This document shows positions 5,028 to 15,740 of a stretch of 64,000 nucleotides of DNA, piece by piece. The stretch is from NCBI GenBank assembly GCA_019116305.1, contig DXBY01000049.1, forward strand, positions 9,386 to 73,385, given 5' to 3'. Made by a program: the position numbers and the translations under genes. Source of the DNA: Candidatus Ruania gallistercoris (GTDB lineage: Bacteria; Actinomycetota; Actinomycetes; Actinomycetales; Beutenbergiaceae). How positions within the stretch are numbered: the stretch's first letter is position 1; each line of letters opens with the position of its first letter. The notes below the pieces were generated by a model. It was not told the DNA's origin. It did no database searches and was given only the letters and a program-made list of their open reading frames with translations.

Positions 5028-6023
5028 TCACGGGATGTCGACCGGGAGCGGCTCTCGTTCTCCATGGCGGCCCGAGGTCTCGACGCCGGATCGCTGCTGC
5101 GCCACTCGCGTGATGCTCAGCGCGGCGATCCGCTCGGCGTTCCCGATCACCTCGATCCGCACGATCCGGTTCTGCCGCAGACCGAAGGCGTAGACAGCCG
5201 TGGCGCTGGCGCCGGTGGCGTAGATGGCACCGGGCATACCGTCGATCAACGCCCGGCGCGCCTTGGCGGCGCGGCCAGCGAACGCTCGCGCCACCGCATC
5301 CGCTCCGTGCAACGACGGGGCCAGCTCCGGAGCCCCTGCCGCGACGAACGGGGCCGATCCGGCGATCACCTCCTGGTCCGCCCGCAACCGGATCTCCGGG
5401 TCGAGCAGCCGCAGCAAGCTGCCGAAATCTCCCTCGCGGGATGCCCTCAGGAAGGCGTCGACGGCCTCGCTTCGGCGGCGGCGTTCGTGCGGCACATCGA
5501 TGTTGGCCACCCGACGGCGTGCTCGGGAGGCGAGCTGGCGCGCCGCCGCTGAGGACCGCTGCACGATCGGCGCGATCTCATCGAAGGGCACCGAGAACAC
5601 ATCGTGCAAGACGAACGCGAGGCGTTCCAGCGGGGCCAGCTCCTCCACCACGAGCAGTGCCATGCTCACCTCATCGCCGGTGAGCGCCACTACCTCGGGC
5701 ACCTCAGGTCCCTCGGCCGGCGCCAGTTCCGGCAGGTCGGCGCCCAGTTCTTCGTGTCGACTGACCAGGTGCCGCAGGTGGTCGAGGCAGATTCGCGAGG
5801 TGATAGTGGTCAGCCAGGCCTCAAGATTCTCGATACCGCCGGTCTCACTGCGCTGCAGCCGGATCCAGGTCTCCTGCACGGCGTCGTCTGCATCCCAGGT
5901 CGAGCCGAGCATCCGCGTCGCCAGGGCGTGCAGGCGCGGACGCTGCATGGCGAAGACCTCAGCGAGCACAGCAGGCCCGCCCGCCTGCCCGCCGGTGACC
6001 ACCGGTGTCCGTTGAGTCATCAT
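5028..6023 (-). CDS. ECF sigma-70 factor with C-terminal SnoaL-like extension (SigJ/ECF41-like)
   Basis: DADDAVQETWIRL (region 2), LERLAFVLHDVFSVPFDEIA..AARQLASRARR (region 4), and C-terminal VDAFLRASREGDFGSLLRLLDPEIRLRAD. Start at ATG 6023 or 6020. Confidence 0.88.
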   Translation of the reverse strand: MMTQRTPVVTGGQAGGPAVLAEVFAMQRPRLHALATRMLGSTWDADDAVQETWIRLQRSETGGIENLEAWLTTITSRICLDHLRHLVSRHEELGADLPELAPAEGPEVPEVVALTGDEVSMALLVVEELAPLERLAFVLHDVFSVPFDEIAPIVQRSSAAARQLASRARRRVANIDVPHERRRRSEAVDAFLRASREGDFGSLLRLLDPEIRLRADQEVIAGSAPFVAAGAPELAPSLHGADAVARAFAGRAAKARRALIDGMPGAIYATGASATAVYAFGLRQNRIVRIEVIGNAERIAALSITRVAQQRSGVETSGRHGEREPLPVDIP

Positions 6024-6044
6024 TCGCTCCCGTCTCGGTCGGCC

Positions 6045-6071
6045 TGTCACATCTGGCGCGGCCCGCTCGTC
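6045..6071 (+). promoter_or_regulatory. ECF41-type promoter TGTCACA-N16-CGTC driving the FAD oxidoreductase
   Basis: TGTCACA at 6045-6051, exactly 16 nt of spacer, CGTC at 6068-6071. It lies next to an ECF41-like sigma gene. Confidence 0.8.
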
Positions 6072-6134: not shown

Positions 6135-7463
6135 ATGACCGACCGACACTCCCCCCTCAGCCCCGCACAGGCGTCCGCGCTACCGACCGCCGTCCGCGGG
6201 CGAGTCTGGCTCCCGGGCGATGGCGGCTTCGAGAAGGCGGGCCAGGCGTGGAACCTGGCCATCGACCAGCAGGTCACGGCCGTGGTCGAGGCCGAGGACG
6301 CCGCGGATGTGACCAGCCTCGTCCGGTTCGCGGCTGCGGCCGGGCTCTCGATCGCGACCCAGCCGAACGGTCACGGTGCCACCGGACGGGCCGCCGGCAG
6401 CATCCTGCTCCGCACCGGCAGGCTCGCCGAGATCGAGATCGACGCCGAGCACCGCAGGGCGCGGATCGGCGCGGGGGTCTCCTCCGGCGCCCTGCAGCGC
6501 GCGACCGCCGAGCACGGACTCACCGCCCTGCCGGGCAGCTCCCCGGTGGTCAGCGTCACCGGAGTGGCGCTCGGCGGTGGGCTGAGCTGGTTCGGCCGGG
6601 CGTTCGGCTGGGTCGCGGACAGCATCACCGCGTTCGATGTGGTGGACGCCGCGGGGCAGCTGCGGCAGGTGAGCGCAGACCAGGATGCCGACCTGTTCTG
6701 GGCGCTGCGCGGTGGGGGCGGCGACTATGCGATCGTCACTGGCCTCGAGCTCACCCTCCAGGAGGCGCCGGCCGTCTTCGGTGGCCGGATCGTCTGGGCG
6801 CACGAGCATGCCGCAGCCGTCGCGCACACGTTCGCTGAGGTGACCCGCTCGGCGCCGAACGAGCTCACCCTGTGGCTGGAGCTGATGAACTTTCCGGGGG
6901 CGGATCCGATGGTAGCCATCGACGTCACCTTCCTCGGGCCGGAACTAGCCGCCCGAGAACTGCTGGGGGTCCTCGATGCCCTCCCGGCCCCGCTCAGCGA
7001 CTCCCTCGCGATGATCTCTGTGGCTGAGCTCGGCAGCATCACCGCCGAACCCACCGATCCCAGTCCCGGTATGTCCCGCGCCGCGCTGCTCACCGGATTC
7101 GACGAGCAGACCAGCACCGCCCTGCTGGCCGAACCGATCGCCCCGTTGCTGGGCGTCCAGATCCGCCACCTCGGCGGTGCGCTGGGTCAGGACAGCAACA
7201 GCCCGCACGGCCCGTTGGTCGAACCGTACGGGGTGTATCTGATCGGTTCGCCGGCGCTGGCCGAGGCCACAGCCATCACCGACCGGCAACAGTCCATCCT
7301 CGACGGTCTACCCACCAGCGGGCGCAGACCGGTCACTGTGCTCGCACCGGGCGAGAGCCTCGCCGATGCACTGCCGGCCGACTCGCTGGAGCGCCTGCGC
7401 CGGATCAAGCGCGAGCGCGACCCGCAAGGAGTGTTCCGAGCGAACTTCAGCGTGCTGGACTGA
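6135..7463 (+). CDS. FAD-binding oxidoreductase (FAD_binding_4/BBE-like)
   Basis: ATG 6135 after GAAGGAAC. Motifs ATQPNGHG, RIGAGV, VSVTGVALGGGLSW, LFWALRGGGG and C-terminal IKRERDPQGVF. Confidence 0.88.
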   Translation: MTDRHSPLSPAQASALPTAVRGRVWLPGDGGFEKAGQAWNLAIDQQVTAVVEAEDAADVTSLVRFAAAAGLSIATQPNGHGATGRAAGSILLRTGRLAEIEIDAEHRRARIGAGVSSGALQRATAEHGLTALPGSSPVVSVTGVALGGGLSWFGRAFGWVADSITAFDVVDAAGQLRQVSADQDADLFWALRGGGGDYAIVTGLELTLQEAPAVFGGRIVWAHEHAAAVAHTFAEVTRSAPNELTLWLELMNFPGADPMVAIDVTFLGPELAARELLGVLDALPAPLSDSLAMISVAELGSITAEPTDPSPGMSRAALLTGFDEQTSTALLAEPIAPLLGVQIRHLGGALGQDSNSPHGPLVEPYGVYLIGSPALAEATAITDRQQSILDGLPTSGRRPVTVLAPGESLADALPADSLERLRRIKRERDPQGVFRANFSVLD

Positions 7464-7480
7464 GAGCGCCCCGGAAGGGA

Positions 7481-8947
7481 TCACAACTCACGAGGTGGAG
7501 ACTCCTTCGCTGAGGCCTGTGGCCGCGGGGCGAACGCGGTAGGCGTGGTGAAGGCCGTCAGCCCGCCGCCGTCGCGCACCGGGGCTCGCTGGCCGGCACC
7601 GGTGACCGGCAGCCGCACGCCGTCAGTCTCCGGTAGCGAGTACGTGGCGAACCAGCTGGCCAGCCGGCCGGCCAGGTCGCCGCGGCGATCGTCGCAGGAG
7701 GGGTCATGGGCGAGGTTGCACCGCTCGCCCGGGTCCTCGGCCAGGTGATAGAGCTCATGCGGACCGTGCGGGTAGCGGTGCACGTACTTCCAGTCCCGGG
7801 TCCGGATCATCCGCACCGGCCCGTACTCGTCGTGCACCACCACGTGCTCTCGCTCGCCGCCGGGCGCCCCGCGCAACAGCGATAGGAACGACTCCCCCGG
7901 CGCGAGCCGATCGGCCGGGTCCGCGATGCCGCACAGCTCGCGAATGGTCGGGGCCAGGTCGTAGGCGGAGATCAGCTCCTCGCGTACCTGACCGGCGGGC
8001 AGGTGCCCGGGCCAGCTGACCAGGAACGGCACGGTGACCGACTCCTCGTACATGTTCTGCGGAAACGTCCCGTTGCCCTTGCCCCAGACACCGTGGTGAC
8101 CGCAGCTGAACCCGTTGTCACTGGTGACGATCACCACAGTGTTCTCCCGCAGGCCCGTTTCGTCGAGCGTCTGCAGGATCCGCCCCACCCCCGCATCCAT
8201 CGCACTGACCGCTGCGAAGTAGCCCTCCAACGCCGCCCGTTCGTCCGCCTCTCCCCCGATCGGGTGCCAGTCGACGAGCGGCACCCACGGGTGGCGCGGC
8301 TCGGTCGGTACCGACTCGAAGGCGCAGTCGGCGTACAGGTCGGTGAACTCCTGCGGGTGCGAACCAGCCCACGGACTGTGCGGTGCGGTGTAGTGCACGG
8401 ACAGGTAGAACGGCTCCGGACGGTCCGATTCGCCTGCGATGAACGCCTGTGCCGCATCGGTGAACACCTCGGTGACATACCCGGGGGCCTCCACCGGGCC
8501 ATCTTCGTCATGCAGGGGCGCTCCGTAGTACGGGCCCCCTCCGCCGTCGTGAGCGAGCCAGCGCACGAAACCCGTCCGGGGGACCTCGTTCGCCCCGAGG
8601 TGCCACTTGCCGACCATCCCCAACCGGTACCCGGCATCGGCCAGGTCGTCGGTGAAGGTGGGTTGCCCGGCCAGGAAGTCGATCGCACCCCGGCCCACGC
8701 CGGGAGCATCCAGGTAGTCGTGCACGCCGTGGACTGAGGGCATTCGTCCGGTGAACAGGGACGCTCGGGCCGGCGAGCAGACCGGAGAGGCGCAGTAGAA
8801 GTGCGTCAGGCGAGTACCGGAGGCAGCGAGCGCGTCCAGGGTGGGGGTGCGGATCTCCTCGTTGCCGGCGCAGCTCATCGCCCACGGGCCTTGGTCGTCG
8901 GTGAGCACCAGCACCACGTTCGGCCGGGCAGCATCGCGGCTGGCCAT
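7481..8947 (-). CDS. Formylglycine-dependent sulfatase (S1 family)
   Basis: PNVVLVLTDDQG, CSPARASLFTG (CxPxR), GKWHLG, SDNG and ELYHLAEDPGE. Start at ATG 8947. Confidence 0.92.
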   Translation of the reverse strand: MASRDAARPNVVLVLTDDQGPWAMSCAGNEEIRTPTLDALAASGTRLTHFYCASPVCSPARASLFTGRMPSVHGVHDYLDAPGVGRGAIDFLAGQPTFTDDLADAGYRLGMVGKWHLGANEVPRTGFVRWLAHDGGGGPYYGAPLHDEDGPVEAPGYVTEVFTDAAQAFIAGESDRPEPFYLSVHYTAPHSPWAGSHPQEFTDLYADCAFESVPTEPRHPWVPLVDWHPIGGEADERAALEGYFAAVSAMDAGVGRILQTLDETGLRENTVVIVTSDNGFSCGHHGVWGKGNGTFPQNMYEESVTVPFLVSWPGHLPAGQVREELISAYDLAPTIRELCGIADPADRLAPGESFLSLLRGAPGGEREHVVVHDEYGPVRMIRTRDWKYVHRYPHGPHELYHLAEDPGERCNLAHDPSCDDRRGDLAGRLASWFATYSLPETDGVRLPVTGAGQRAPVRDGGGLTAFTTPTAFAPRPQASAKESPPREL

Positions 8948-8987
8948 CAGCGCACCTCGCCGTCGGCGATCACCTGCACATCGCCGC

Positions 8988-9821
8988 TCAGCCCGCGTAC
9001 CAGCGCAGCAGCCGCTCCACCTCGGCCCCGACCGCCTCACCCGCCGGGGCGAACCACTTGCGGGTGTCCACCAGGTCCGCATCTGCGACGAGCGTCTCGC
9101 GCACCGAGCCCGTGAAGATCTGGTTCAGGTGGGTGGAGACGTTGATCTTGGTCATCCCGGCCGCGATCGCCGCTCGCATCCCCTCGTCGCTCACTCCCGA
9201 AGAGCCGTGCAACACCAGGGGTGTGTCCACGGCGGCGGCGATCGCGGCGATCAGGTCAGTATCGAGCACCGCCCCGCGGGTGGTCATCGCGTGCGAGGAG
9301 CCGACCGCGACAGCGAGCAGGTCCACCCCGGTGGCAGCCACGAACTCGGCAGCCTCCCCCGGATCGGTGCGCACACTCGGATCATGCACGCCGTTCTTCC
9401 CGCCGATCTCACCGAGCTCAGCCTCCACGCTCACCCCCCGCGCGTGGGCGTCGGCGACGACGGACGCCGTGGTGGCGATGTTCTCCTCGGCGGGCAGCCG
9501 GGAGCCGTCGTACATGATCGAGGTGAAACCTAGGTCGAGTGCCTCGGCCACCAGGCCGGTGTCGTCGGCATGGTCCAGATGCACCACCGTGGGCACACCG
9601 GCGGCCCGGGCCACGGCCAGGGTGCCCGCGGCGATCGGCTCGAGGCGGCCGTGATACTTCACCGCGTTCTGGCTGATCTGCAGCACGACCGGCAGGTCCG
9701 CCCGTTCGGCGGCGGCCACGAACGTCTCGGCATGCTCGAGATGGATCACGTTGAACGCCCCCAGGCCGCGGCCGCGCTCGCGGGACTGGTGGGCGAGGGT
9801 GGTCAGATCAGCTAGCGGCAT
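8988..9821 (-). CDS. Class II fructose/tagatose-1,6-bisphosphate aldolase
   Basis: GAFNV, VHLDHA, SIMYDGS, VEAELGEIGG, AVGSSH, LVLHGSSG and KINVST. Start at ATG 9821. Confidence 0.92.
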   Translation of the reverse strand: MPLADLTTLAHQSRERGRGLGAFNVIHLEHAETFVAAAERADLPVVLQISQNAVKYHGRLEPIAAGTLAVARAAGVPTVVHLDHADDTGLVAEALDLGFTSIMYDGSRLPAEENIATTASVVADAHARGVSVEAELGEIGGKNGVHDPSVRTDPGEAAEFVAATGVDLLAVAVGSSHAMTTRGAVLDTDLIAAIAAAVDTPLVLHGSSGVSDEGMRAAIAAGMTKINVSTHLNQIFTGSVRETLVADADLVDTRKWFAPAGEAVGAEVERLLRWYAG

Positions 9822-10737
9822 CGATTTCCTCGGTCTGGATCGTCGGGAGCATCCGGGCGTAGGCCTCCAGGTCCACCTCACCGGCGGTGGGCCGCAGGAC
9901 GGCGGCACCGGAGAGGGCGACCACCTCACCCAGGTGCGCGGACAGGTCGGCTCCTCGTGCACCGTCGGCCAGGGCCACGGCCAGTGCGGCCACGGCGGCG
10001 TCCCCGGCCCCGGTCGGGTTGCCCGTCAGCGTCTCCGCCGGGCGGGCCGCCCAGTGCTCCTCGCCGGTGACCAGCAGCACGCCGTCCGCCCCGCGGGAGA
10101 CCAGCACGGCCTCTGCCCCCCGGGCGAGCAGCGACCGGGCACCGGTGAGCACGTCTGCGGCACCGGTGGCGGCGAGCAGCTCCTCCTCATTCGGCTTCAG
10201 GCAGGCGGGCCCGGCGGCGGCCACCTCGAGCAGACCGGGTCCGGAGGTGTCCGCCACCACGGCCGCACCCAGCTCGACGGCGGAACGCACCAGTGCCGAC
10301 AGGTCACCGTCGCCTGTGCCCGGCGGGGTCGAGCCGGATACGGCCAGCACATCACCGGCGGCTAGCCGGGCGAGCACGCCGGCCGTCAGGCGCCCCCAGT
10401 CGTGGGAGGTGACCTGCGGGCCGCGTTCGTTGAAGATGGTGGCGTCCCTTTCGTCCACCACGTTCACGGTCCGCCGGGTCTGCCCGCTGACCAGCGTCCA
10501 CGCCTGCTCCACCGGCTCGGACAGGAGCAGGTCCTCCAGCGTCTCCCCTGCGGCGCCGCCGAGGAAGCCGGTCGCACACACCGGCCGGCCCAGGGCAGCG
10601 AGCACCCGGGCGACGTTGACTCCCTTGCCACCGGCGGACTCCACCACCTGCTGGACCCGGTGCACCCGCCCGTGCTGCAGCTGCGGCACGGTATAGGTGA
10701 CGTCGACGGCAGGGTTCGGCGTGAGGGTGACGATCAT
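9808..10737 (-). CDS. PfkB-family hexose-phosphate kinase (1-phosphofructokinase/tagatose-6-phosphate kinase type)
   Basis: MIVTLTPNPAVD, AGGKGVNVA, LKPNEEEL and GNPTGAGDA. Confidence 0.92.
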   Translation of the reverse strand: MIVTLTPNPAVDVTYTVPQLQHGRVHRVQQVVESAGGKGVNVARVLAALGRPVCATGFLGGAAGETLEDLLLSEPVEQAWTLVSGQTRRTVNVVDERDATIFNERGPQVTSHDWGRLTAGVLARLAAGDVLAVSGSTPPGTGDGDLSALVRSAVELGAAVVADTSGPGLLEVAAAGPACLKPNEEELLAATGAADVLTGARSLLARGAEAVLVSRGADGVLLVTGEEHWAARPAETLTGNPTGAGDAAVAALAVALADGARGADLSAHLGEVVALSGAAVLRPTAGEVDLEAYARMLPTIQTEEIDAAS

Positions 10738-11603
10738 GGGGAACCTCCGGAGGTCATCGCCAGGGCGGCAGCACCCAGGCAGCCCGCCCATTGTCCCAGC
10801 CCGGCGCGCCGCAGCGGCGGCATCGCCGGTTCCGGCAGCCGGGCGGCAAGGGCGGCGCGCAACGGCTGGACCAGGGCGTCCCCAGCCTCGGCCAGGCCGC
10901 CCCCGAGGACCACCGGCACTGGTCCGAGCAGACCGGCGCTGGTAGCCAGCACATCGGCAAGGGCCTCGATCGCGGAGTCCAGCACCCGCCGAGCCGCCTC
11001 GTCTCCGGCGGCTGCGCGTTGGAACACGGCCCGCGCCCCACCGGAGGTGTCCGAGGAGCCGGTGGCCGCGGCGTAGCGGTGCGCCAGTGCCCCGGCGGCG
11101 CAGACGCGTTCCAGCGGCACCCGGCCACCGCCGTCCGGGTCGGGGACCAGGATCTGGCCGATCTCCCCGGCCCAGCCGGTGCCGCGGATCTGCCCGTCGG
11201 TGATCAGCGCGGACGCCAGCCCAGTGCCGAGTGGCAGGAAAAACAGGTCCGGCTCGCCGGCACCCCACCGGGACTCGGCGAGCGCGCCGGCGCGGACATC
11301 GTGACCGGTCACCACCGGGGCACCGAGGCGGGTCGAGAGCAGGTCGCGCAGCGCAAGCTCACGCCAGCCGAGGTTGGCGGAGTAGACCACCACACCGCGC
11401 TGCTCGTCCACGATCCCGGGGCTGACCACACCGATTGCCGCCGTCGGGGTGGCCGCGGCCTCGCCGGCGATCAGGTCGGCGACCGCCTCCGGTTCGTGCG
11501 GTGTGGGCAGCTGGCGGGCATCACGGAGCGTGCCGTCGGTGGTGACCCGGCCGATCTTGATGGCGGTACCGCCGATGTCCACACCGAGTACCGGCGGCGC
11601 CAT
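10734..11603 (-). CDS. ROK family sugar kinase
   Basis: LGVDIGGTAIK, HDVRAGALAE, LGTGLASA, AGEIGQ and VVLGGGL. No HTH N-terminus. Confidence 0.9.
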   Translation of the reverse strand: MAPPVLGVDIGGTAIKIGRVTTDGTLRDARQLPTPHEPEAVADLIAGEAAATPTAAIGVVSPGIVDEQRGVVVYSANLGWRELALRDLLSTRLGAPVVTGHDVRAGALAESRWGAGEPDLFFLPLGTGLASALITDGQIRGTGWAGEIGQILVPDPDGGGRVPLERVCAAGALAHRYAAATGSSDTSGGARAVFQRAAAGDEAARRVLDSAIEALADVLATSAGLLGPVPVVLGGGLAEAGDALVQPLRAALAARLPEPAMPPLRRAGLGQWAGCLGAAALAMTSGGSP

Positions 11604-11604
11604 C

Positions 11605-12489
11605 TCAGTCCTCCGCGGTCAGGTGCACCGCACGGGACAGGTGCCGCGGGGTGTCCGGGTTCAGCCCGCGGGTCTCGGCCCGCGCGACCGCCACCCGGTG
11701 CAGCAGCGCCAGGTGGGCGAGCGGGTCCAGGTCGCTGGTGACGAGGGTGGCGCCGGTGGCGGCGACGTCCTCGGCGAGCCCGGCCGGAACGGGGCCGAAC
11801 ACCCAGACCACCCGGCCGGGCTGCGCGATGGAGATCGGGCCGTGCCGGTACTCCATCGCCACATAGGACTCGGTCCAGGACTGGGAGGACTCCCGCAGCT
11901 TCAGCGCCGCCTCGTGGGCCAGGCCGATGGTCCACCCGGTGCCGAGGAAGGTCAGCTGGTCGGCCTGGATCCAGACATCCTCGAGCGGTTCCTGCAGTGC
12001 GGTCCGGGCGTCGGTGACCGCAGCGGTCAGGTCCACGCCCAGGCTGGCGCGCAGCAGCGCGAGGGTGGTGGTGGCGAACCGGGTCTGCACCACGGAGGTC
12101 TCGTCCGCTTCGGCCAGCACGATCTCCGCGTCGGCGTGGGTGGCGGCCGGGCCGCCCGCGACCGCGGTGAGCAGCGCGCTCGGCGTGTCTGTGGCCTGCA
12201 GCAGCTGCACGATCTCGGTGGTGGTACCGGAGCGGGAGATGGTCACGATCCGGTCGTAGCGGCGACCGGCCGGGAACTCCGAGGCGGTGAACGCATCGGT
12301 CTCCCCCTGCCCGGCTCCCTCCCGGAGTGCGGCGTAGGCCTGCGCCATGAACCAGGAGGTGCCGCAACCCACCACGGCGACGCGTTCGCCGTCGACCGGC
12401 AGACCAGCGGCAGTGGCGAGGATGGTCTCGACTCCGGCCCACAGCTCTGGTTGGCTGAACACCTCACGGCTGGTGGACGACTCGGTCAC
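11605..12489 (-). CDS. SIS-domain sugar-phosphate isomerase/deaminase (AgaS-like)
   Basis: VGCGTSWF, ISRSGTTTE, ETSVVQTRF, EAALKLRE and EYRHGPIS. Start is probably GTG 12489; the ORF extends to 12516. Confidence 0.88.
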   Translation of the reverse strand: MTESSTSREVFSQPELWAGVETILATAAGLPVDGERVAVVGCGTSWFMAQAYAALREGAGQGETDAFTASEFPAGRRYDRIVTISRSGTTTEIVQLLQATDTPSALLTAVAGGPAATHADAEIVLAEADETSVVQTRFATTTLALLRASLGVDLTAAVTDARTALQEPLEDVWIQADQLTFLGTGWTIGLAHEAALKLRESSQSWTESYVAMEYRHGPISIAQPGRVVWVFGPVPAGLAEDVAATGATLVTSDLDPLAHLALLHRVAVARAETRGLNPDTPRHLSRAVHLTAED

Positions 12490-12553
12490 GGTGTACTCCT
12501 TGGTGCGCGGGGACACAGTCCCGGTTTCGGTGCATGATCATGAGCAGTCTAAA

Positions 12554-12588
12554 GTGCTTCCAATCAGATTCCATCACGATTGGAGCAC
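12554..12588. promoter_or_regulatory. Inverted repeat in the divergent promoter, candidate DeoR/AgaR operator
   Basis: GTGCT(T)CCAATC-N12-GATTGGAGCAC, in an AT-richer intergenic patch. A CATGATCATG palindrome lies at 12533-12542. Confidence 0.5.
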
Positions 12589-12591
12589 GAC

Positions 12592-13374
12592 GTGAATCGA
12601 CACGAGCGGCTCGGCGCGTTGTTGAACCTGATCGTGGACCGGGAGCAGGTGCACGTGGACACCGTGGTCGCCGAGCTCGGCATCTCCCCGGCTACTGTGC
12701 GCCGCGACCTGGACACGCTGGCCGACCAGCAGCTGGTGGTGCGCACCCGCGGCGGTGCGGCGGCGCACCCGAGCACCGGGGACCTGCCGCTGCGCTACAA
12801 GGCGACCCGCAGTGGAGGCCAGAAGGCTCGGATCGCCGCTGCTGCGGCGGCGATGGTCTCCCCCGGTCAGGTGGTCGGCCTGAACGGGGGCACCACCACG
12901 ACCGAGGTGGCCCGGGAGCTGGCGGTGAGCGAGCGCCTGCACTCCCGCGAGTCAGCGCACGCAGTGGTGGTAACCAACGCCGTCAACATCGCCGCGGAGC
13001 TGGCCGTACGCCCGCACCTGCGGGTCGTGCTCACCGGTGGCGTGGTGCGCCCGCTCAGCTATGAGCTCACCGGACCGCTGGCGGATCTGCTGCTGGACCA
13101 GGTGAGCCTGGACGTACTCTTCCTCGGCGTGAACGCCTTCGGCGCCGAGCCGGGTGCGGCCTCGCACGACGAGGGGGAGGCTGCGATCGGTGCGGCACTG
13201 GCGGCGCGCGCCCAGCGGGTAGTGGTGGTCGCCGATGCCAGCAAGCTGGGCCGCAGCGCGTTCGCCCGGATCCTCGGCGTCGATCAGGTACATACGCTGA
13301 TCACCGACGATGCGGCCGACCCGGAGGTGGTCGCGGCACTGCGAGCGGCCGGCGTCGAGGTGGTCCTGGTCTGA
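12592..13374 (+). CDS. DeoR/GlpR family transcriptional regulator (AgaR-like)
   Basis: HTH ISPATVRRDLDTL, K.RIA..A, LNGGTTTTEVA, VVTNAVNIA and DASKLG. Divergent from the sugar operon. Confidence 0.93.
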   Translation: MNRHERLGALLNLIVDREQVHVDTVVAELGISPATVRRDLDTLADQQLVVRTRGGAAAHPSTGDLPLRYKATRSGGQKARIAAAAAAMVSPGQVVGLNGGTTTTEVARELAVSERLHSRESAHAVVVTNAVNIAAELAVRPHLRVVLTGGVVRPLSYELTGPLADLLLDQVSLDVLFLGVNAFGAEPGAASHDEGEAAIGAALAARAQRVVVVADASKLGRSAFARILGVDQVHTLITDDAADPEVVAALRAAGVEVVLV

Positions 13375-13517
13375 TCTCACCCGGCGAAGCCTCGACCGGT
13401 CCGTGGCCTGGTACCGGCACGTCTTCGAGCTGGCCGAACCTGATCTGATGCCCGCAGACGGCGTGGTCGAGTTCCGGCTCGGACCGATCTGGCTCCAGCT
13501 CGCAGAGGGTCCGAGCT
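13370..13517 (+). pseudogene. Fragment of a VOC/glyoxalase-family gene
   Basis: Translates SLDRSVAWYRHVFELAEPDLMPADGVVEFRLGPIWLQLAEGP. It has no start or RBS and is cut off at the stop codon of the convergent exonuclease. Confidence 0.65.
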
Positions 13518-14588: not shown

Positions 14589-15740
14589 ATGACCGATCAC
14601 AGCGCCTTGACGCCGTTCACCATCGATATCCCGCAGACTCAGATCGAGGACCTCCAGGCTCGGCTGGCCGCTGCCCGCTGGCCGGACCAGCTGCCCGACG
14701 TCGGCTGGAGCCAGGGCGCGCCGGTGCCCGAGGTGCGTGAGCTCGCCGAGCACTGGCGCACCGGCTATGACTGGCGTCGCCACGAGGCCCGGCTGAATGA
14801 GTACCCCCAGTTCGTCACCGAGATCGACGGGCAGCGACTGCACTTCTTCCATGTGCGCTCGCCGGAGCCGGAGGCGCTGCCACTGGTGCTGGTGCACGGT
14901 TGGCCCGGCTCGCCGGTGGAGTTCGAGGCACTGATCGGCCCGCTGACCGACCCGCGGGCGCACGGCGCCGATCCTGCCGACGCTTTCCACCTGGTCATCC
15001 CGACGCTGCCGGGCTTCGGCTTCTCGGGGCCGACCGGTGCCGCCGGCCAGGCCTCCACCGAACGCTCCGCCGAGCTGATCGCGGCGCTGATGGACCGGTT
15101 GGGCTACCCGCGGTACGGCGCCCAGGGCGGGGACGCCGGCTCGTTCATCGCCCCACAGCTGGGTCGGCTGCACCCGGACCGGGTGGCCGGTGTGCACGTC
15201 AATGCCCTGATCACCATCCCGCCGTGGGACATCGACAGCGCCGAATTCAGCCCCGCCGACCAGGCGAAGCTGGCCGAGCTGCAGGACTGGAGCAGCAACT
15301 CCACCTCCGGGTACGCCGCCATCCAGTCCACCCGGCCGCAGGCCCTCGCCTACGGGCTCACCGACTCACCCGTCGGCCTGCTCGGCTGGATCGCGGACAT
15401 CTTCCACCTCTTCACCAACCCTGCCCACGACCGCCCCGCCGACGCTCTGGCCGTGGACGCGTTCCTGACCAACCTGAGCCTGATGTACTTCACCGGCACG
15501 GTCGGATCGTCGATGCGGCTGTACACCGACGGCGATCAGTGGGGCGCTGCGCTGCCCTCCTCCGGTGTGCCCACCGCATGTGCGGTGTTCCCCGGGGACA
15601 GCACGATCCGCGGGATCGCCGAGCAGCAGAACAATCTGGTGCGGTGGACCGAGTTCGACCGCGGCGGGCACTTCGCCGCACTGGAGGCGCCCGACCTGCT
15701 GGTAGCCGACCTGCGGGAGTTCTTCGCCTCCCTCAGCTGA
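14589..15740 (+). CDS. Epoxide hydrolase (EHN domain plus alpha/beta hydrolase)
   Basis: PFTIDIP..L..RL...RWP, YDWR, VHGWPGS, AQGGDAG and GGHFAALE. Confidence 0.93.

Follow-up and report, generated by a model that had tools for sequence, protein, structure and literature searches.

An Aga-like operon and a SulA1-type sulfatase, probably brought together by a local rearrangement, in Candidatus Ruania gallistercoris

The described pathway most similar to the genes studied here is the Aga pathway for N-acetylgalactosamine (GalNAc) and galactosamine (GalN) of Escherichia coli, together with its kinase-dependent variant in Shewanella; its components are AgaP/AgaK, AgaA, AgaS, a tagatose-6-phosphate kinase, KbaY/GatY and the regulator AgaR (PMC12118421, a review that cites, among its sources, Leyn et al. 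2012, PMC3431674, and Hu et al. 2013, PMC3668189). A second described system is SulA1, the N-acetyl-D-galactosamine-4-O-sulfate sulfatase of the marine Arthrobacter sp. MAT3885. SulA1 is a cytoplasmic protein of 484 amino acids without a signal peptide, it has been linked to chondroitin sulfate, and its gene adjoins choA1; of 13 substrates it was active solely on monomeric GalNAc-4-sulfate, being inactive on N-acetylglucosamine-6-sulfate and galactose-4-sulfate (PMC10972148). We analysed a 64,000-nucleotide stretch of Candidatus Ruania gallistercoris DNA from contig DXBY01000049.1 (the window; GC content about 70%), in which genes for a SIS-domain protein, a ROK-family kinase, a PfkB kinase and a class II aldolase are followed by a sulfatase gene. 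We read this locus as an Aga-type pathway in variant form, combined with a sulfatase that is probably of the SulA1 type. With a probability of roughly 0.6, it consists of two units of different age, a conserved Aga-like operon and a sulfatase that was stranded from a neighbouring gene module by a local rearrangement. The neat layout, in which a sulfatase seems to close the operon, is a recent, lineage-specific local accident and not a conserved design.

Gene families were assigned by Pfam and NCBIfam profile searches, and gene starts were picked from the translations and from GC content by codon position. The arrangement described in an earlier sequence-only reading was found exactly as stated. 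On the minus strand lie the genes of a double-SIS, GlmS-isomerase-like protein (11605-12516; PF01380; a predicted hexosamine-6-phosphate deaminase/isomerase), a ROK-family sugar kinase without a helix-turn-helix (HTH) domain and without the ROK zinc motif (10734-11603; PF00480, 138 bits), a PfkB kinase of the 1-phosphofructokinase/tagatose-6-phosphate kinase subfamily (9808-10737; TIGR03168, 257 bits, cut-off 216) and a class II ketose-1,6-bisphosphate aldolase (8988-9821; PF01116, 279 bits). With the chosen starts, the SIS and ROK genes are separated by 1 nt and the next two boundaries are overlaps of 4 and 14 nt. The fifth gene of the run, 40 nt beyond the aldolase and on the same strand, encodes a formylglycine-type (S1) sulfatase with a CxPxR motif, a predicted GalNAc-4-sulfate sulfatase of the SulA1 group (7481-8947; PF00884, 185 bits, plus SGSH_C). 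A DeoR-family regulator with HTH_DeoR and DeoRC domains (12580-13374, plus strand) is divergent from the operon. A longer sulfatase reading frame extends to 9082, and this extension is non-coding in composition (second-position GC 0.89). The protein atlas entry for the SIS protein begins at residue 10 of the open reading frame, and its true start may be at 12489, nine codons downstream of 12516.

The order sample consisted of 301 genomes, including this one (G000); G317 denotes a sister species carrying a full module, and G318 a congener whose genome is complete. Downstream of the aldolase lies an insertion hotspot, at which the congeners show four different contents. In six of them the aldolase is followed at once by metH, in the order metH-ald-pfkB-rok-sis-deoR-exo-epimerase-tetR. 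The order in G318 is metH, an extracytoplasmic function (ECF) sigma factor, a FAD oxidase, a vapBC-like pair and the aldolase. The sister species G317, with the full operon upstream, has after the aldolase sulfB, sulfC, two permease genes and a substrate-binding protein (SBP) gene on the opposite strand, then gntR, gfo and sulfA on the aldolase strand, followed by the FAD oxidase and the ECF sigma factor. The fourth content is that of G000: aldolase, sulfatase, FAD oxidase, ECF sigma factor and metH. The sulfA gene of G317 is the orthologue of the window sulfatase (76% identity) and belongs to a transcription unit separate from that of the SIS operon; its start is overlapped by the gfo stop (TGATG). 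The sulfatase/FAD-oxidase junction, at which 17-19 nt separate the two stops, is common to G000 and G317. A Micromonospora locus (L026) shows the order gntR-gfo-sulfA again, as does, with gfo not detected, G303, which represents another genus of the family. The shared junction and the recurring gene order make loss in G000 the parsimonious reading, and we infer a loss and not a gain, in which about 8.4 kb of the module would have disappeared and one sulfatase survived.

The two genes that flank the sulfatase on its far side are lineage-specific neighbours. The FAD_binding_4 oxidase identified by Pfam (6135-7463, plus strand) is convergent with the sulfatase, and the ECF-type sigma factor with Sigma70_r2 and r4_2 domains (5028-6050, minus strand) is divergent from the oxidase. 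This pair was found only in G000, G317 and G318, a three-species subclade, and was absent from the six other congener loci. The end of the ECF sigma reading frame and the annotated start of metH share about 38 nt. The vapB/vapC-like pair of G318, an antitoxin and a PIN-domain protein (L146:11741-12520), lies between the FAD oxidase and the aldolase. An epoxide hydrolase gene (14589-15740) stands between those for the 5'-3' exonuclease and the epimerase. G317 and G318 have it too, at 75-88% identity, and the six other congeners examined lack it at this position, so that it is a further marker of the subclade with the ECF/FAD-oxidase pair.

Orthologues of the window sulfatase were not found in eight of the nine congeners (E<=1e-60); the locus was read in seven of these eight, and none of the seven has the gene at the site downstream of the aldolase. 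Across the order, 78 of the 301 genomes (26%) carry an orthologue of the SIS gene and nine have sulfatase matches at E<=1e-100; besides G000, only two of the latter reach about 60% identity. The sequence-only reading had proposed co-occurrence with the cluster as a check on the sulfatase's role. The two genes occur together in 4 of the 301 genomes and are adjacent in G000 only; the other side of the comparison, which is suggestive of an association, is given below. These distributions bear on the explanation offered by that reading, namely a single purpose-built operon in which the ROK kinase replaces a phosphotransferase system (PTS), the sulfatase stands at the end and the substrate is a non-acetylated sulfated amino sugar such as a sulfate of GalN or glucosamine (GlcN). 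Tight spacing, a single strand, the lack of a predicted terminator, the SGSH_C domain of the sulfatase and the lack of NagA in the window agree with it. The failure to find the sulfatase in nearly all congeners and its placement in another transcription unit in G317 contradict it; SGSH_C, moreover, is a general C-terminal sulfatase subdomain that is present in both other sulfatases of the module, and the closest characterised relative acts on an N-acetylated substrate, GalNAc-4-sulfate (PMC10972148). Together with the NagA genes described below, these observations make a purpose-built operon highly improbable.

The reading in which the sulfatase was stranded beside an older operon draws on the properties of the enzyme itself. 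The gene is full-length and intact. The N-terminus of its product reads MASRDAARPNVV, and its metal-binding Asp pair, at residues 17-18, is too close to that end for a signal peptide to fit, which predicts a cytoplasmic enzyme. The residues that define S1 sulfatases are all present (C57-S-P-A-R61, D17, D18, H190, D277 and N278). The key residues of SulA1 are Cys57, His190, Asp17, Asp18, Asp277 and Asn278, and its best match in the Protein Data Bank is 5G2V (PMC10972148); thus, the six catalytic and metal-binding residues have the same numbers in the two proteins. The window sulfatase also resembles SulA1 in length (488 amino acids), in lacking a signal peptide and in having 5G2V (about 30% identity) as its best solved relative. 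The nearest solved structures as a group, all about 30% identical, are the GlcNAc-6-sulfatase 5G2V, kappa-carrageenan sulfatases (one of them titled S1_16) and GalNAc-6-sulfatases; the matches to these chains are similarly weak (E 1e-45 to 1e-40) and the specificities differ. The orthologous group is strongly conserved, with members at 50-63% identity in Actinomycetota, Paenibacillus, Chloroflexota, Proteobacteria, Poribacteria and Planctomycetota; SulA1 is the one characterised relative that was found.

The termini of SulA1 were deduced from the published primers (MVSSSPA..., ...PNWDGI), and its loop GRAENAVV is quoted in PMC10972148. Three homologues from Arthrobacter (P0070, P0071 and P0060) show matching termini and a matching loop; their identity to the window sulfatase is about 59%. 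The residue numbering and the Arthrobacter intermediates, rather than an aligned SulA1 sequence, are consistent, indirectly, with membership of the window sulfatase in the SulA1 group. Orthologues of the sulfatase adjoin genes for PL8 lyases in several genomes, as sulA1 adjoins its lyase gene, and PL8 lyases were found within 10 kb of a sulfatase orthologue in nine loci. The window gene differs from sulA1 in following an aldolase and not a chondroitin lyase, and its activity is a prediction. At L113 (G303:C1:2790000-2809900), in the genome from another genus of the family, the sulfatase module has three homologues of PL8 lyases at its flanks.

The module of G317 consists of an ATP-binding cassette (ABC) importer, a GntR-type regulator, a Gfo/Idh/MocA oxidoreductase and three sulfatases, and its binding protein is most similar to NgcE, a binder of N-acetylglucosamine (GlcNAc) and chitobiose. 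Of 23 actinobacterial loci with the sulfatase, about 17 also have the module. Module and SIS operon are immediate neighbours in three Streptomyces species (L012, L016 and L019) as well as in Ruania G317, and in a Micromonospora genome the genes SBP-perm-perm-SIS-ROK-PfkB-ALD are contiguous on one strand. All 14 sulfatase-bearing genomes that were searched whole, besides G000, carry the SIS operon, compared with the background of 26% in the order; these 14 genomes are mutually related, so the co-occurrence is suggestive and does not amount to a statistical test. Judged from these gene neighbourhoods, the sulfatase and the SIS operon are probably linked in function. The idea that the sulfatase extends the pathway to a sulfated sugar therefore keeps its basis in the SulA1 grouping, the chondroitin-sulfate link and the recurrence of the module beside the SIS operon, and loses the part that made the gene a member of the operon, since it is not a conserved one. 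In the Streptomyces locus L148 (G320:C22:44000-56000), the SIS gene beside the module is apparently split into two pieces (7602-7330 and 7274-6870), and a PL8 lyase lies between SIS and ROK; the operon may be disrupted there.

The SIS operon was compared across 26 loci from other families of the order. The SIS-ROK-PfkB-aldolase core with DeoR is conserved, the regulator lying beside the SIS gene in 20 of the 26 loci, and an ABC sugar importer adjoins the operon in about ten. In three loci (L117, L133 and L122) a deacetylase of the NagA family (TIGR00221, 201-232 bits) is located between ROK and PfkB or beside the operon, which argues for an N-acetylhexosamine as the substrate.

The individual proteins were compared with curated profiles. 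The SIS protein scored 90 bits with GlmD, 32 bits with NagB-II and 22.4 bits with the AgaS model TIGR02815 (cut-off 529), all below cut-off, so that membership in AgaS (TIGR02815/cd05010) was rejected, and TIGR02815 had no match anywhere in the genome. Its best solved relatives are the archaeal GlmD-type glucosamine-6-phosphate deaminases 2CB0 and 2DEC, and the atlas clusters name it only a "SIS domain-containing protein". Identity with NagS (SCO4393), a GlcNAc-6-phosphate dehydratase, was also rejected: NagS is a single-domain, MurQ-like protein (PMC12680351), whereas the window protein is a GlmS-isomerase-like double-SIS protein. The PfkB kinase scored 146-155 bits with the LacC equivalogs (cut-offs 410-469) and belongs to the subfamily TIGR03168; the aldolase scored 215.5 with TIGR00167 (cut-off 215.6), 207 with GatY (383) and 145 with KbaY (542). 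As far as can be judged from the profiles, the PfkB and aldolase models cannot tell fructose from tagatose substrates. The DeoR regulator scored 176 bits with the AgaR model (cut-off 260) and 178 bits with the GlpR model, which amounts to a tie. The ROK kinase has the motif GEIGQ and lacks the zinc-binding CxCGxxGC. Among 15 orthologues of this kinase (L097-L133), nine keep GEIGH...CxCGxxGC and six likewise have GEIGQ and are without the zinc motif, and one group holds both zinc-type and zinc-less members.

The proposal of an Aga-like hexosamine route stands in so far as the operon is kinase-dependent, independent of a PTS and accompanied by NagA in orthologous operons; the assignment of its SIS protein to AgaS does not stand. 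The likeness to the Aga pathway lies in the predicted sequence of a hexosamine-6-phosphate, a SIS deaminase/isomerase, a ketohexose-6-phosphate, a PfkB-type 1-kinase and a class II aldolase under a DeoR-family regulator, with a cytoplasmic kinase in place of the PTS as in Shewanella and with NagA possibly acting in trans as in E. coli. The differences are that the SIS protein lies outside the AgaS family, that the regulator and the aldolase score below the AgaR, KbaY and GatY cut-offs, that the operon has no KbaZ/GatZ-like subunit and the locus no deacetylase or transporter, and that the present pathway is a prediction from sequence.

These scores also bear on the possibility that the operon serves some other sugar, such as GlcN or GlcNAc, an Amadori or fructosamine compound, or a neutral hexose converted to tagatose- or psicose-6-phosphate, the link to GalNAc being coincidental. 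The similarity of the SIS protein to GlmD/NagB-II-type GlcN-6-phosphate deaminases rather than to AgaS would fit this, as would the blindness of the PfkB and aldolase models to fructose versus tagatose and the fact that ROK specificity is unreadable from sequence. Glucosamine, however, enters glycolysis as fructose-6-phosphate, for which a 1-kinase and an aldolase would be redundant, and a nagB-nagA pair is already present on contig C180; the in-operon NagA of other genera points to an N-acetylhexosamine, and the operon is repeatedly linked to a module with a SulA1-type sulfatase and PL8 lyases. A different sugar is thus quite unlikely. Since neither GlcN nor GlcNAc would call for a dedicated 1-kinase and aldolase, and since the genome has its own nagB-nagA pair, GalNAc or GalN degraded via tagatose is most likely the substrate of the operon and represents the most economical reading of these genes.

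Partner functions were found elsewhere in the genome. The earlier statement that the window has no deacetylase, importer or formylglycine-generating enzyme (FGE) holds: profile and homology searches of the contig gave no match to FGE or NagA and no homologue of the binding protein or the permeases of the module (E<1e-20). The genome has an FGE gene at C15:21751-22578 (PF03781, 252 bits), with a second, weaker match on C333, and NagA-like genes at C180:13382-14464 and C142:1920-2777. The first of these belongs to a classical nagB-nagA pair, and the C142 copy is 50% identical to the operon-embedded NagA of an orthologous locus. A PL8 lyase is encoded on C18. The conclusion, drawn from the genes missing around the operon, that the substrate may be a non-acetylated sugar fails because FGE and NagA-like genes exist elsewhere, and because the importer genes next to the sulfatase in the sister species are missing here. 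The same two NagA-like genes, and the NagA genes inside orthologous operons, tell further against the purpose-built operon discussed above. Contig C153 (L143, L144) carries a second sulfated-glycan locus with two sulfatases, one of them 53% identical to sulfB of G317, along with GH2, GH43, two ABC sugar importers and a LacI regulator.

The 40-nt spacer between aldolase and sulfatase (8948-8987, minus strand), which is the proposed rearrangement junction, contains a GAGG ribosome-binding site and no predicted terminator. Promoter and terminator scans of positions 7300-13500 found none, these scans being uninformative at 70% GC, and the fold of the spacer was no better than that of shuffled sequences. 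With no predicted terminator and an unremarkable fold, read-through from the aldolase into the sulfatase is possible. The spacer was also considered as a member of the palindromic repeat families of the genome, and this was rejected, as only short, GC-rich, coding-like matches were obtained. Anchored comparison with G317 gave agreement with the 3' end of gfo at 22 of 40 positions, and local comparison with G318 gave agreement with part of the vapC-like gene at 29 of 34; the sequences involved are coding-like and GC-rich.

Several observations weigh against the proposal that a conserved Aga-like operon was joined by a sulfatase stranded from its module. The spacer gives no clear deletion junction, neither of its two matches appearing decisive given the codon-phase composition. 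The 92.7%-complete genome yielded no orthologue of the module importer, regulator or oxidoreductase. No GH88 was found in it either. Most genomes with the sulfatase have the SIS operon at another chromosomal position. The SIS protein falls outside every curated equivalog (AgaS, NagB-II and GlmD). The case for orthology to SulA1 is indirect, with about 59% identity to apparent close relatives of SulA1, and the specificity of sulfatases can change within about 59% identity. A literature search found no description of an actinobacterial SIS-ROK-PfkB-aldolase cluster and no assay of an enzyme of the operon from any actinobacterium.

Some of these points would be expected if the juxtaposition were meaningless and the sulfatase a gene orphaned when a deletion struck a hypervariable site, decaying or used otherwise, for example in sulfate scavenging. 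The four different contents of the site in close relatives, the failure to find the importer, regulator and oxidoreductase of the module in the genome, and the distance between sulfatase and SIS operon in most genomes agree with this. So does the ratio of nonsynonymous to synonymous substitution rates (dN/dS) between G000 and G317, which is higher for the sulfatase (0.29) than for the aldolase (0.15), the value for the FAD oxidase being 0.26. On the other hand, the gene is full-length with complete catalytic residues, an FGE is present, the module and the SIS operon have independently come to lie side by side in Streptomyces and form a fused unit in Micromonospora, and every sulfatase-bearing genome searched for the SIS operon has it. 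We consider an orphan gene unlikely, but still a serious alternative.

According to the favoured explanation, that of an old operon and a stranded sulfatase, DeoR and SIS-ROK-PfkB-aldolase would form an old, conserved actinobacterial unit, most likely for GalNAc or GalN. The ROK kinase would phosphorylate the hexosamine at C6, the SIS protein would deaminate and isomerise the product to a ketohexose-6-phosphate, PfkB would phosphorylate this at C1, and the aldolase would cleave the bisphosphate to triose phosphates, deacetylation being supplied in trans by a NagA-like enzyme. The sulfatase would desulfate monomeric GalNAc-4-sulfate in the cytoplasm. The ancestral module, with an ABC importer that has an NgcE-like SBP, a regulator combining a GntR-type HTH with a periplasmic-binding fold, Gfo/Idh/MocA and up to three sulfatases, would have served the uptake and desulfation of chondroitin-sulfate-type fragments. 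The surviving sulfatase gene, having its own ribosome-binding site and no terminator before it, is probably transcribed from the DeoR-controlled promoter.

A more far-reaching proposal can be made only tentatively, namely that these genes belong to an undescribed actinobacterial route from chondroitin-sulfate-derived GalNAc-4-sulfate to triose phosphates, in which the sulfatase was rewired by deletion under the DeoR-controlled promoter in Ruania. The parts of this route would be an ABC importer, a cytoplasmic SulA1-type sulfatase, a GalNAc kinase of the ROK family with or without zinc, NagA, a double-SIS GalN-6-phosphate deaminase outside the AgaS family, a PfkB tagatose-6-phosphate kinase and a class II aldolase. 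A comparable strategy has reportedly been described by Egan et al. in 2016 for the ats2 cluster of Bifidobacterium breve UCC2003, which is said to serve GlcNAc-6-sulfate by means of an intracellular sulfatase, an anaerobic sulfatase-maturating enzyme (anSME), a transporter and a ROK-type regulator. By that account, the likeness lies in the import of a sulfated N-acetylhexosamine monomer by an actinobacterium, its desulfation in the cytoplasm and its subsequent degradation by ordinary amino-sugar catabolism; the ats2 system is said to differ from the window in sulfatase lineage, in the use of anSME instead of FGE, in the sugar and in the downstream route.

The locus carries a caution, in that a very tidy operon can be an accident a few million years old and spacing alone is no proof of design. 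Three close Ruania genomes, with the full module, with the sulfatase only and with neither, constitute a natural experiment on the contribution of the module. If the proposed explanation is true, the Ruania case would be a natural example of operon growth through the loss of intervening genes, and a SIS family now named only for its domain would be a remote homologue that, without belonging to AgaS, fills the same role. It would also close the gap between central metabolism and the only characterised SulA1-type sulfatase, whose product GalNAc has no assigned fate in actinobacteria, and would provide better annotation for several hundred actinobacterial genomes and for glycosaminoglycan turnover in soil and marine actinobacteria.

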